A DNA stretch of 58,016 nt from a bacterium (GTDB taxonomy: Bacteria > Patescibacteriota > Microgenomatia > Daviesbacterales > UBA10151). Shown in pieces: positions 98 through 3,626 of this stretch (the first letter of the stretch is position 1; every line of letters begins with the position of its first letter). The translations under genes and the position numbers were made by a program. The notes beneath the pieces were generated by a model, which was not told where the DNA came from, made no database searches, and worked only from the letters and a program-made list of their open reading frames with translations. The stretch covers positions 1 through 58,016 of the forward strand of contig JAUSJM010000034.1 of NCBI GenBank assembly GCA_030647265.1. Reading direction: 5' to 3'.

Positions 98-1282
98 ATG
101 GCAGACGCTAAAAAATACGAAAGAACAAAACCGCACGTTAATATTGGCACCATGGGTCATGTGGATCACGGTAAAACCACTTTAACCGCCGCTATCATGA
201 CTGTTTTGGCTGGCAAGGGGCTGGCCCAGAAATCTTCTGTTGATGAGATTGACAACGCTCCTGAGGAAAAAGCTCGTGGTATTACTATTAATATTTCCCA
301 CCGAGAATATGAGACAGAGAAAAGGCACTATGCCCACATTGATATGCCGGGTCACGCCGACTATATCAAAAACATGATTACCGGTGCTGCTCAAACAGAC
401 GGAGCAATTTTGGTAGTGTCTGCTCCTGATGGACCCATGCCTCAAACCCGGGAGCACATCCTTTTGGCCCGTCAGGTAGGAGTACCGGCAGTTGTAGTTT
501 ACCTGAATAAAACCGATCAGGTCTCTGATCCGGAGCTTTTGGATTTGGTGGAAGAGGAAGTAAGAGATCTTTTAAAGAAATACCAGTATGATCCTAACTC
601 CCCTATCATCAGAGGTTCAGCCTTGAAGGCTTTGAGTGGTGATCCTGAGGCTGTTAAATCTATCGAAGAGCTGATGAAAGCGGTTGACGAGTGGATTCCT
701 ACTCCTACCCGGGATATTGATAAGCCCTTCCTGATGGCTGTAGAGGATGTTTTCTCTATTAAGGGCCGGGGAACAGTGGTGACGGGAAGAATTGAGAGAG
801 GAAAAGTTAAGGTCAACGAAGAAATTGAAATTATAGGAATCAGACCAACAAAGAAAAGCGTTGTGACTGGAATAGAAATGTTTCATAAAATGCTTGATGA
901 AGGTCAAGCCGGAGATAATGCCGGGATACTTCTTCGCGGTATTGAAAAAGATGATGTGGAGCGCGGTCAGGTGTTGGCTAAACCCGGCTCTATCACTCCT
1001 CACGCTGAATTTGAAGCGGAAGTTTATGTTCTTTCTAAAGAAGAGGGCGGAAGACACACTCCGTTCTTTAAAGGTTACAGACCACAATTCTATATCAGAA
1101 CCACTGACGTGACCGGCGAAGTAATCTTGCCGGAAGGTGTAGAGATGGTGATGCCTGGTGATACCACCAAGATGACAGCTAAGCTTATTACTCCGGTAGC
1201 TATGGAAGAGGGTTTAAGGTTTGCTGTCAGAGAAGGTGGAAAGACAGTGGGAGCTGGGGTAATCACGAAGATTATTAAGTAA
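98..1282 (+). CDS. tuf: translation elongation factor Tu
   Basis: 394-aa ORF with [11 protein letters not shown]-loop, DMPGHADY and NKTD GTPase motifs. Sits directly upstream of rpsJ. Confidence 0.97.
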
Positions 1283-1307
1283 CTAAGAGATAGTTTAGGG
1301 TATTAAG

Positions 1308-1330
1308 AGGGGGCTAAAAGGCCCTTTTTT
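1308..1330 (+). terminator. weak terminator-like element after tuf
   Basis: Short GC stem gggc/gccc (1311-1314 / 1321-1324) followed by a T6 run. Confidence 0.3.
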
Positions 1331-1388
1331 CATGAGGTTGTGGTAGAATATAGCACATTAACAGTAGGAAAAAGTATTTTTAAAAAAT

Positions 1389-1700
1389 ATGGCTAAAGGA
1401 CGTATTCGCGTAAAACTTAAAAGTTATGATCATCGGGTACTCGATAGCACTATCGAGCAGCTTTTGGATACTGCTTTACGTACCGGTGCCAAAATTGTTG
1501 GCCCGATCCCTCTTCCTACTAAAACAGAAAAATTTACTGTTATCCGAGGTACTTCTTCTAACGCTAAAAATTCCCAGGAAGCTTTTGAACTAAAAACCCA
1601 CAAGAGACTGGTAGAAATCGTTGAACCAACAGATAAGACTATTGATAGCCTTATGCATTTGGAATTACCGGCAGGAGTAGACATTGAGATAAAGACGTAA
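1389..1700 (+). CDS. rpsJ: 30S ribosomal protein uS10
   Basis: 103-aa ORF with the uS10-type N-terminus RIRVKLKSYDHRVLD. Lies directly after tuf. Confidence 0.95.
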   Translation: MAKGRIRVKLKSYDHRVLDSTIEQLLDTALRTGAKIVGPIPLPTKTEKFTVIRGTSSNAKNSQEAFELKTHKRLVEIVEPTDKTIDSLMHLELPAGVDIEIKT

Positions 1701-1752
1701 ATAGACTTTGGGGATTTCCCGATAGTCTTTTCTTTTTGCTTTGCAAAAACGT

Positions 1753-1818
1753 AAAACTATTGATTCCTTAATGCACTTGGAACTCCCCGCCGGAGTTGAC
1801 ATCGAAGTCAAGATGTAG
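1753..1818 (+). pseudogene. orphan duplicate of the last 21 codons plus stop of an rpsJ gene
   Basis: Encodes KTIDSLMHLELPAGVDIEVKM*, against KTIDSLMHLELPAGVDIEIKT* for the intact gene at 1635-1700. There is no upstream rpsJ-like reading frame. Confidence 0.8.
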
Positions 1819-2112
1819 GATTCTCCCCTACGAAATGTTCTAGTAACCGTTGATCGCTTGCCAGCAAGATTAGCAATAAGTGAGTGGGCATTTCCAAAAC
1901 TTGCTTACCTTGAGCATCCTTGAGAATAAAAGCAAAATTACGGTCCGATAGCATCTGGAGACTTTTTCTTAATAATAGTGCCTGACGGGTGATTTCGCTT
2001 ATACTCTATTAGTTTTTATAGCCTCTGTCCTAAGAGATTCCTGAAGTTCTGGTTCCAAGTCAATTGTTATTCTTATTCTTTTAGATGTGTTGTCAAGGCG
2101 TTCTCCAGACAT
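1808..2112 (-). pseudogene. frameshifted ribbon-helix-helix (CopG/Arc-type) antitoxin-like gene
   Basis: Hand translation gives ATG 2112, MSGERLDNTSKRIRITIDLEPELQESLRTEAIKTNRV*, stop at 1999. It continues in another frame as SISEITRQALLLRKSLQ... down to 1808. Joined, the pieces form a typical RHH strand-helix-helix. An AGGGGGA Shine-Dalgarno lies upstream. Confidence 0.45.
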
Positions 2113-2177
2113 TCCCCCTATTATAGGGTACAAATACGATTTGTCAACTTTCGTTTTTGAGGCTAGGGATTTTTAGC

Positions 2178-2206
2178 TTGACACATTAAAGGTGTAAGGC
2201 TAAATA
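2178..2206 (+). promoter_or_regulatory. candidate promoter TTGACA-N17-TAAATA inside the rpsJ-rplC insert
   Basis: ttgaca at 2178-2183, a 17-nt spacer, taaata at 2201-2206. It faces the DUF4258-like/DUF2283 pair. Confidence 0.4.
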
Positions 2207-2229
2207 TTGTCCTATGCTATCATAAAGAT

Positions 2230-2397
2230 GTGAGAATTCTTTTGACACTTCATGTTCATGAGAAGCTTCAGGAGAAGGATGCGAAGCTACTAAAAATTAC
2301 CAAGAAGAAGATCCTGGCAGTTCTCTCACATCCTGATAAGATTAATCGGACTAATTATCCAGCAGAGAAAGGAAGATATGAAAGTAAAGTATTTTGA
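2230..2397 (+). CDS. short DUF4258-like toxin candidate (GTG start, 55 aa, possibly truncated)
   Basis: Hand translation: VRILLTLHVHEKLQEKDAKLLKITKKKILAVLSHPDKINRTNYPAEKGRYESKVF*. It shows the H..EKL...I....IL.VL..PD pattern and overlaps the DUF2283 start by 20 nt. Absent from the ORF track. Confidence 0.3.
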   Translation: MRILLTLHVHEKLQEKDAKLLKITKKKILAVLSHPDKINRTNYPAEKGRYESKVF

Positions 2398-2626
2398 AGA
2401 CGCTGATTTGTTAAGCTTTCGTATTAGTAATGAGCCATACAAGTACGCTCGTCAGTTTGATGATGTCATTATTCACTACAGTGCAAAAAAGGAACCGGTT
2501 TTAATTGAGGTGATTGACGCGGCGAAGTTCCTCAAAAAGACTACCCACCTGTTACCTAAAAAGGTCCAGGCTAAAATTTGGCCTGGGAGAGTTTCCACCC
2601 CAGTTGCTCACCAAATTAAGCGTTGA
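2378..2626 (+). CDS. DUF2283-family small protein (usual partner of DUF4258)
   Basis: 82-aa ORF. The N-terminus MKVKYFEDADLLSFRIS resembles the DUF2283 consensus (MKI.YD.EADALYI.L). Confidence 0.55.
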   Translation: MKVKYFEDADLLSFRISNEPYKYARQFDDVIIHYSAKKEPVLIEVIDAAKFLKKTTHLLPKKVQAKIWPGRVSTPVAHQIKR

Positions 2627-2720
2627 TATCTTTCTCTTGCAATCTAGCTTCAAGCTATGCTACAATCCGGATACACCATGGAGTGGAAATAGAATAAAAA
2701 CAATTTTTCAGTAAATTGTG

Positions 2721-2755
2721 CGTCCTGAGCGAGTGTAAACGAGTCTAAGGATACG
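2721..2755. repeat. CCTGAGC...AAGGA hairpin-repeat copy (variant)
   Basis: cgtcctgagcgagtgtaaacgagtctaaggatacg. It shares the CCTGAG / CGA..AAGGA ends with the copies at 2781-2815, 14619-14663, 30427-30446 and 51440-51457. Confidence 0.5.
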
Positions 2756-2780
2756 ACAATTGAAGGTGTGCACAATTGCT

Positions 2781-2820
2781 GAGTGAGACCCTGAGCAAAG
2801 TCGAAGGGCTCACTCTTTTT
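2781..2820 (+). terminator. intrinsic-terminator-like hairpin (also a copy of the CCTGAGC..GAAGGG repeat)
   Basis: gagtgagaccct (2781-2792) pairs with agggctcactc (2805-2815): 11 bp with one bulge and a 12-nt loop gagcaaagtcga. It is followed by T5 and then T6. It ends 15 nt before the rplC ATG. Confidence 0.6.
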
Positions 2821-2834
2821 AATGGCTTTTTTAT

Positions 2835-3626
2835 ATGATTAATACTTTATTGGGAATAAAAAAGAATATGACATCTACCTATGATGCCCGGGGCAGAAGG
2901 GTGGGAGCTACTGTAGTGGAAGTTATGCCTAATTTTGTGACCCAGGTAAAGACTGCTGACAGCAAAGATGGCTATGAGGCAGTGCAATTAGGGCTAGGAA
3001 GCAAAAAATCTGTCCGAAAACCTCAACTAGGTCATCTTAAAAAAGCCGGAGTAGATCAAAAAGTAAGATGGCTTAGAGAAGTAAGAGAAGATATGGCAGA
3101 TGTCAAATTAGGAGACTCAGTTGAAGTCTCCTCTGTTTTTTCTAAGGGTGACGCTGTCAAAGTGACTGGTATATCCAAGGGTCGGGGTTTTCAGGGAGGA
3201 GTCAGACGTTATGGTTTTGCAGGAGGTCCTAAAACTCACGGCCAGTCAGACAGGCACCGGGCTCCCGGTTCCATTGGTTCCGGCACTACCCCGGGGAGAG
3301 TTTTAAAAGGTAAAAGGATGGCCGGGCATATGGGAGCAGCTACGGTTTCCGTCCGAGGTTTAGAGGTGGTAGAGGTAGACAAAAGTAAAAATTTGTTAAT
3401 TATTAAGGGAGGAATCCCCGGAGCTACCGGTTCCTTGGTCAGTATTTCTAAACTGGGAAGAATTAAAGGTTATACTCCCCCTCCGGAAGAGAAACCAGAG
3501 GAGGAAGAGGAATCTGAGGAGAAAAAGGTAGAGGCAGGTGCTAGCGAGGCAGAAGGACAAACTGCAATTGAAGCAGAAGCAGCAGAAACACCAGAAGTAA
3601 AGGAGGGAGCAGAAAATGCCGGTTAA
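2835..3626 (+). CDS. rplC: 50S ribosomal protein uL3 with an acidic C-terminal tail
   Basis: 263 aa with the uL3 core (KGRGFQGGVRRYGF, GHMG). The last ~50 aa are an E/A-rich extension. Confidence 0.95.
   Translation: MINTLLGIKKNMTSTYDARGRRVGATVVEVMPNFVTQVKTADSKDGYEAVQLGLGSKKSVRKPQLGHLKKAGVDQKVRWLREVREDMADVKLGDSVEVSSVFSKGDAVKVTGISKGRGFQGGVRRYGFAGGPKTHGQSDRHRAPGSIGSGTTPGRVLKGKRMAGHMGAATVSVRGLEVVEVDKSKNLLIIKGGIPGATGSLVSISKLGRIKGYTPPPEEKPEEEEESEEKKVEAGASEAEGQTAIEAEAAETPEVKEGAENAG

Follow-up and report, generated by a model that had tools for sequence, protein, structure and literature searches.

The 1134-nt rpsJ-rplC gap of a Daviesbacterales genome: a likely family-wide cargo slot holding a gene-end scar, a decaying toxin-antitoxin cassette and a native rplC control region

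The window analyzed here is a 58,016-nt stretch of DNA, contig 29 (JAUSJM010000034.1) of a metagenome-assembled genome (GCA_030647265.1; 785 kb, 35 contigs, 92% complete) from the patescibacterial order Daviesbacterales, in which the genes tuf (98-1282), rpsJ (1389-1700) and rplC (2835-3626) follow one another. An original prediction, made by a model from the letters of the DNA, had drawn attention to the 1134 nt between rpsJ and rplC, a spacing borne out by the rpsJ stop at 1700 and the rplC start at 2835, and had explained it by a selfish toxin-antitoxin (TA) module that invaded the S10 operon. The pieces it listed in the spacer, namely a frameshifted ribbon-helix-helix (RHH) gene, a promoter, two overlapping open reading frames (ORFs) and two hairpins, are each found where it had placed them, and no further copy of the spacer was found in the same genome. 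The features of the locus are as follows:

1389-1700, plus strand: rpsJ (uS10), complete (PF00338, E = 1.6e-32; the protein ends ...DIEIKT, then stop)
1701-1751, plus strand: post-rpsJ spacer with two hairpins and then a U-rich run (terminator-like site 1708-1722 in the scan)
1753-1818, plus strand: second copy of the last 21 rpsJ codons and stop (KTIDSLMHLELPAGVDIEVKM, then stop), part of a 66-nt direct repeat
1808-2112, minus strand: gene of the RHH family, interrupted by a frameshift of 2 nt at about 2006-2007 (three-frame translation; RHH_1 match on read-through)
2120-2147, minus strand: sigma-70 consensus promoter TTGACA-16-TATAAT, 12/12 matches (promoter scan)
2178-2222, plus strand: pair promoter TTGACA-N17-TAAATA (2178-2206), then an extended -10 TGCTATCAT (2214-2222), read from the sequence
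2230-2397, plus strand: remnant of a toxin-like gene, 55 aa, corresponding to an 86-aa protein without 31 internal residues
2378-2626, plus strand: intact DUF2283 gene (YuzE-type, predicted antitoxin; PF10049)
2637-2666, plus strand: rplC promoter TTGCAA-N18-(TG)CTACAAT (promoter scan; conserved in relatives)
2667-2834, plus strand: rplC 5' leader RNA (alignment, covariation and covariance model)
2835-3626, plus strand: rplC (uL3; PF00297, E = 1.5e-14)

We consider it likely that this gap is made up of three layers, a scar at the end of rpsJ, a decaying TA cassette and the native control region of rplC, which together occupy a cargo slot found across the family.

Among relatives of the family, which are kin and hence not independent samples (their rpsJ orthologues are 74-92% identical), the distance from rpsJ to rplC varied from 179 to 4468 nt in a first sample of 29 loci, all 29 of which conserve the rplC promoter. 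When the comparison was extended to the 77 family genomes that carry both genes on one contig, a simple pattern recovered this promoter in 74, and in these the length of the slot, measured from the rpsJ stop to the rplC -35 element, was distributed as follows:

Slot of at most 100 nt: 25 genomes
Slot of 101-300 nt: 2 genomes
Slot of more than 300 nt (up to 4414 nt): 47 genomes

In ten more genomes the contig ends past rpsJ without reaching rplC. The 49 occupied slots form 29 sequence clusters, none of which includes the slot of the window, and the Pfam domains recognized in their cargo comprise HSP70, matrixin, an IS1 fragment, an aspartyl protease, GIY-YIG and a methyltransferase, besides many orphans. 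Turnover is evident even within genera: three species of one genus (g25) have gaps of 239, 953 and 2603 nt, and the slots of another (g63) range from 14 to 4414 nt. When the slot is empty the rplC promoter begins 2-30 nt past the rpsJ stop, and the leading cargo gene of several genomes begins so close to that stop, only a few bases away, that it must ride the rpsJ transcript. The spacer between tuf and rpsJ, unlike this gap, is short throughout the relatives (about 80-420 nt). Tolerance of the cassette would be accounted for if the short interval from the rpsJ stop to the -35 element of rplC forms a boundary between transcription units, and hence a slot whose contents turn over within genera. 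Such an arrangement recalls the integration or defence hotspots known beside core genes in having fixed flanks and interchangeable, unrelated cargo even within a genus. It differs from them in that the flanks are two ribosomal-protein transcription units, the cargo consists mostly of small genes of unknown function, and the cargo ORFs scanned in the slots examined here included no integrase, the IS1 fragment being confined to one slot.

Two further observations concern the contents and the upstream flank of the slot. The commonest cargo is an antisense YhbQ-type GIY-YIG nuclease gene, present in 9 of 57 slots (L064, L067, L116, L122, L127, L132, L134, L141 and L149) with mutual identities of 30-77%, always on the minus strand and often beside CCTGAGC...CGAAGG hairpins; the genome of the window has such genes elsewhere, on contigs C33 and C13. 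By eye, a hairpin and T-run 3' of tuf and an extended -10-like TGGTAGAAT 40 nt upstream of the rpsJ start can be discerned (at 1308-1332 and 1341-1349), and rpsJ may possibly constitute a single-gene transcription unit.

The third layer (2637-2834) would be the family's own rplC promoter and structured leader, with a terminator-like U-run 14 nt before rplC. An alignment of the 200 nt upstream of rplC gives the family form of the promoter as TTGCAt-N17-TGnTAnAAT. The leader that follows is about 170 nt long in the window and about 130-290 nt in the family, and comprises an outer helix (2708-2713 paired with 2777-2782), an inner helix (2715-2723 with 2753-2760) with a variable tip (2724-2750), and a terminator-like hairpin (2781-2815; -17.9 kcal/mol, z = -3.4) followed by UUUUU at 2816-2820, with the rplC ATG 14 nt further on. 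The family version of this end, ACTGAGTGAG...CTCACTC TTTTT, lies zero to about 15 nt from the rplC start in most members, and the terminator hairpin with its U-run is present in all 22 leaders that we aligned. When the structure of these 22 sequences was assessed against 500 shuffles and slid controls, 94% of the cells of the nested structure were paired and 7 pairs showed changes on both sides, a covariation score reached by none of the 500 shuffles and collapsing in the slid controls. For example, 15 sequences have CG and 7 have UA at the leader pair 13:74, and at the terminator stem pair 107:144 GC (17 sequences) gives way to UA (3) or CG (2). An alternative partner for the same 5' strand of the leader is also backed by compensatory changes. 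A natural deletion in one relative (L045 of genome G008) removes the whole inner hairpin and leaves, together with the terminator, only the longer outer helix formed with this alternative partner, which is perfect there, from which it follows that the inner helix is dispensable in that genome. The two hairpins that the original prediction had counted among the debris of the cassette (2714-2760 and 2781-2815) are thus real structures of another origin, the former being the inner helix with its tip and the latter the terminator stem of this conserved leader. As a side observation, the dispersed motif CCTGAGC..GTCGAAGG occurs in the variable tips of both hairpins (2789-2808 and 2725-2750), and does so in about half of the relatives too; this repeat family seems to settle in hairpin tips that tolerate it.

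A covariance model built from the leader matches the window at 2705-2820 (E = 6.4e-13) and has exactly one match per genome in each of the 8 family genomes sampled; in 143 genomes drawn from 50 further families of the class it gave no match, and a scan of 1200-3000 against Rfam 15 likewise returned no leader, only a chance snoRNA match at E = 0.32. As judged from these searches, the leader appears to be confined to a single family of Patescibacteria. The closest functional parallel is the leader of the Escherichia coli S10 operon, where ribosomal protein L4, acting with NusA, halts transcription at a hairpin immediately ahead of the first gene and translation is repressed as well (PMC3616713). 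Each is a structured 5' leader some 170 nt long in front of a large ribosomal-protein operon, and each has variable upstream hairpins, a terminator hairpin and U-run shortly before the first start codon, and a narrow taxonomic range. Unlike its E. coli counterpart, the present leader precedes rplC rather than rpsJ, is restricted to one patescibacterial family and has no similarity to it in sequence or through Rfam. Among the hallmarks of ribosomal-protein leaders, then, a structure backed by compensatory changes and a terminator with a U-run are present, and homology to a described family was not found. Its probable role, judged by the E. coli parallel, is to meter transcription into rplC-rplD and beyond. 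The literature searched contained no relevant paper on rpsJ/rplC in Patescibacteria, on ribosomal leaders of the Candidate Phyla Radiation (CPR) or on a DUF4258/DUF2283 pairing, and none on the gene-end scar described below.

These results bear directly on the explanation first offered for the gap, according to which a selfish TA module broke a contiguous S10 operon and the promoter at 2178-2206 now drives rplC and the genes downstream. The hexamers TTGACA-N17-TAAATA are indeed present at 2178-2206, with a palindrome (ACAC..GTGT) at 2181-2195 inside the promoter, and no terminator lies between the DUF2283 stop at 2626 and the rplC promoter at 2637, so that transcripts from the cassette could enter the leader and read-through into rplC is physically possible. 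However, the TAAATA -10 is weak, matching 3 of 6 consensus positions and lacking the final T, and was missed by the consensus promoter scan, and the native promoter and leader of rplC are conserved in 74 of 77 relatives, including 25 in which the slot is empty, leaving no need for a promoter supplied by the cassette. Moreover, unrelated cargo occupies the junction in most relatives; the synteny comparison that had been proposed as a check on the invasion of an intact operon returned more than 300 nt of unrelated cargo in 47 of 74 genomes, and points instead to an old, family-wide boundary. We accordingly regard this explanation as very unlikely: the slot is commonly occupied and rplC keeps its own promoter and leader, hence the cassette most likely neither split nor rewired the operon.

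The second layer (1808-2626) would be composed of a frameshifted RHH regulator or antitoxin gene and, beyond divergent promoters, a toxin-first pair of the HigBA style. The two separate minus-strand pieces of the RHH gene (1999-2133 and 1808-1954) have no match in Pfam. Joined across the frameshift they match RHH_1 (PF01402) with E = 3.9e-4 and 20.7 bits against a cut-off of 20.5, a match that spans the frameshift and passes the membership score only on read-through of a frame that is not intact. Three-frame translation shows the frame to be lost within the RHH motif itself, owing to a surplus of two bases at about 2006-2007. A word-based homologue search with the read-through found nothing, and a full phmmer search with the C-terminal piece as query recovered intact relatives of 86 and 116 aa (P0009 and P0010) with the same C-terminal domain. 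The consensus promoter of this gene places its -10 just 7 nt ahead of the ATG at 2112, and the mRNA is therefore probably leaderless.

The toxin-like gene of the pair, which is distantly related to DUF4258 or BECR-like proteins, would have lost its core through an in-frame deletion of 93 nt, leaving DUF2283 intact and under constraint. The 55-aa ORF has no match in Pfam (E <= 10) or NCBIfam, and the NCBIfam search was equally empty for the RHH and DUF2283 peptides. Its closest relative, the 86-aa protein P0006, aligns with it end to end except for a 31-aa internal gap (residues 42-72), a segment kept in all relatives aligned, and is encoded on a public contig directly upstream of a DUF2283 gene whose product (P0002) is 88% identical to that of the window. 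P0006 matches DUF4258 (PF14076) over model positions 1-70 of 71 with E = 8.5e-4 and 20 bits, below the cut-off of 25; a second relative is likewise full-length and sub-threshold, and P0006 is also sub-threshold for PBECR3, of the barnase / EndoU / RelE-like nuclease family. The likeness to DUF4258 that had been proposed shows below threshold in intact relatives, and the ORF of the window is itself internally deleted. The predicted DUF2283 ORF is a clear member of its family, matching PF10049 over model positions 1-48 of 49 with E = 9.8e-9 and 35.7 bits (cut-off 23), and with a ratio of nonsynonymous to synonymous substitution rates (dN/dS) of 0.047 against its orthologue in the relative L079 it is under purifying selection. 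Thus, of the three profiles put forward in the original prediction, DUF2283 was matched above its cut-off, RHH_1 just above and on read-through only, and DUF4258 below and in the relatives only. Queried with DUF2283, with P0006 and with the toxin alignment, the sequences of the PDB yielded no meaningful match.

Contextual evidence for the pair comes from other genomes. The remnant and the DUF2283 gene are co-oriented and overlap by 20 nt, and at 9 of 13 other loci a full-length partner of about 84-94 aa lies directly upstream of DUF2283, overlapping it in 8, which upholds the TA-type pairing that had been claimed. At two further of these 13 loci only the last 14-18 residues of the partner are left, so that DUF2283 has repeatedly been kept where its toxin was lost. 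Homologues of DUF2283 occur in 27 of 96 family genomes, and in the four cases checked they lie on a contig other than that of rpsJ, suggesting that the module is mobile. In L079 the same slot reads tuf, rpsJ, a sigma70_r4 gene, an intact pair of 86-aa and DUF2283 genes, an ORF, and then the rplC promoter and leader; its stretch corresponding to 2197-2222 of the window, including the extended -10 TGCTATCAT, is similar, and copies of the pair-promoter motif are found in the slot of G212. Nucleotide identity between the window and L079 is 79-85% over the pair and 74.5% over tuf-rpsJ; recent horizontal transfer of the pair between the two was considered and dropped, synonymous differences being near saturation (pS 0.61 vs 0.71). 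As an observation apart, the protein encoded directly after rpsJ at L079:1412-1795 consists of sigma-70 region 4 alone (Pfam E = 1.5e-11), and a look-alike of it can be seen, by eye only, in the G212 (L095) slot. Compared with known toxin-first type II pairs (HigBA-like; DUF4258/DUF2283), the present module is alike in its small overlapping genes with the toxin-like one upstream, its promoter palindrome and the recurrence of the pairing in relatives; it is unlike them in that its toxin-like protein, whose toxicity is putative, is sub-threshold for DUF4258 and PBECR3 and, in the window, internally deleted. In terms of what defines a type II system, a conserved pairing of adjacent small genes is present and an intact toxin gene is absent. 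Antitoxin function of DUF2283 is itself a prediction, for which PMC12521503 cites UniProt. Given the loss of its core by the toxin-like gene, the cassette is most likely harmless now, and we infer that DUF2283 persists as an orphan antitoxin.

Several points weigh against the reading in three layers. The frameshift in the RHH gene could be an assembly error of the metagenome-assembled genome. The toxin-like family falls below the Pfam threshold for DUF4258, with E <= 0.01 in just 2 of 9 members, hence our use of DUF4258-like rather than member, and the single-sequence AlphaFold model of P0006 has a predicted local distance difference test score (pLDDT) of 47, too poor for a fold search. At each of the nine invariant positions of the alignment (of which it is itself a part) the 55-aa remnant keeps the shared residue, and its retained parts show some constraint, with a dN/dS of 0.25 against the L079 orthologue; on this evidence it may still have a residual role. 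At the third layer, we infer promoter use, termination at 2820 and read-through. Mimicry of 23S rRNA by the leader was considered and dropped, only chance 7-8-mers being shared with the 23S rRNA of the same genome; with no such likeness, nothing points to L4 or L3 as an effector.

The points on the remnant could also be taken to mean that the cassette is a still-working three-gene module, in which the RHH frameshift stems from faulty assembly and the 55-aa protein functions as a short toxin or adaptor. Such a reading would fit the perfect promoter on the RHH gene and a deletion that preserves both the reading frame and the overlap with the start of DUF2283. We give this a slim chance, for the deletion has taken residues 42-72, which hold most of the predicted beta-sheet (three of four strands in the low-confidence model of P0006), whereas full-length partners elsewhere have about 84-94 aa; the two other loci noted above have likewise lost the toxin and kept DUF2283, and no intact near-identical copy was found among 5.8 billion proteins. 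A cassette of TA type, as had been proposed, is accordingly present as remnants, its toxin-like gene lacking 31 codons and its RHH gene frameshifted.

The first layer (1701-1818), a hairpin spacer with an untranslated copy of the rpsJ end, would mark recombination at the gene end. The direct repeat that defines it (1634-1699 and 1752-1817; 66 nt, 76% identical) was missing from the original list of pieces. A 25-aa ORF that contains the copy (1741-1818) has a sub-threshold match to S10 (E = 0.016). Over the 21 codons the copy and the active end differ by 10 synonymous and 2 non-synonymous changes (I to V and T to M), and in their stops, TAA against TAG; both non-synonymous changes yield the ending EVKM that is the family consensus. 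Since the differences are mostly synonymous and the copy has this consensus ending, both ends evolved as working ends, in different genomes. The intervening spacer folds at -15.1 kcal/mol (1701-1765; z = -2.4) and carries at 1722-1729 the octamer ATAGTCTT, which repeats rpsJ 1635-1642 in inverted orientation. The same organization, with a complete rpsJ, a hairpin spacer of 47-106 nt and a copy starting at codon 82-83, is present in G029 and G198, so that the window genome (G000) has the boundary of the scar in common with two other genera; G212 and G188 have shorter copies of the rpsJ end further downstream, and G036 a vestige. In G000, G029 and G198 alike, the 8-12 nt with which the duplicated stretch begins recur in the spacer in inverted orientation, identical to the active end at every position (8/8, 10/10 and 12/12) and less similar to the displaced copy. 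By virtue of this exact match the active end and the spacer look like a single unit.

Two routes to this scar can be weighed. We favour one in which a small insert, consisting of a new end and the hairpin spacer (1634-1751), displaced the native end of rpsJ, and put it at about even odds. In the other, which we hold to be possible at a clearly lower probability, the copy at 1753-1818 is the gene end of a donor, another member of the family, carried in with the RHH cassette by homology-facilitated illegitimate recombination. The copy shares 11 nt with the 3' end of the RHH gene, which makes the two neighbours before the event, and the almost entirely synonymous differences, which speak for two ends that worked in different genomes, would suit such a transfer, as would the AGC serine codon used both by the active end and by G002, the closest relative, and the mosaic slot of G212, where a duplicated piece of the rplC promoter is joined to an rpsJ copy. 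On the other hand, in G000, G029 and G198 the copy begins at codon 82-83 and is followed by different cargo, and in all three the inverted copy agrees fully with the active end and more poorly with the displaced one. The same start together with the inverted copy therefore fits a site-specific unit better than three random joins. In the G212 slot just mentioned (L095; G212:C13:1-1600, minus strand) a second rplC promoter and about the first 30 nt of the leader are joined to the copy of the rpsJ end at a TAGCTTGACAC..GGTG..GCTAAATATT motif, and the same motif occurs in the window at 2172-2210.

The favoured displacement by a small insert bears comparison with islands and prophages that enter gene 3' ends and supply a replacement end (attL/attR). 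As in those, the last 21 codons are duplicated, the gene is left whole and the boundary recurs in independent genomes of three genera; unlike in those, the copies are only 118 nt apart from start to start (51 nt from end to start) with no recombinase gene between them, and an inverted copy of the start of the target lies between them. It is tempting, though doubtful, to generalize that the rpsJ end is targeted by recombinase-less units, each composed of a replacement end and an inverted target copy, that insert at codon 82-83 without removing the old end, in a so far undescribed mode of DNA movement; the slot thus opened, beside the family-specific attenuator RNA of rplC, would allow cassettes to be exchanged among species. 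A GIY-YIG homing nuclease was considered as the cause of the scars and dropped, none being present in a scar-bearing slot, and a contig break within rpsJ in G035 proved to be only an assembly overlap at an empty site. A genome-wide scan found no second clear gene-end duplication in the genome of the window. Elsewhere in that genome (C30:23069-23403) two 97-nt direct repeats (98% identical) flank a stretch that by eye resembles a tRNA gene.

The cassette itself thus represents ordinary TA decay, with the toxin lost and the antitoxin kept, and its context, namely the split junction, the leader and the gene-end scar, is of greater interest. Across a whole family of ultra-small bacteria the "universal" adjacency of rpsJ and rplC is replaced by an operon boundary equipped with its own promoter and with a leader RNA that is attenuator-like and uncatalogued. 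In the annotation of CPR genomes, and in analyses based on operons, such gaps should not be taken as operon disruption. The leader and the gene-end scars offer handles for studying how genes are regulated and exchanged in organisms for which growth in isolation is not yet possible.

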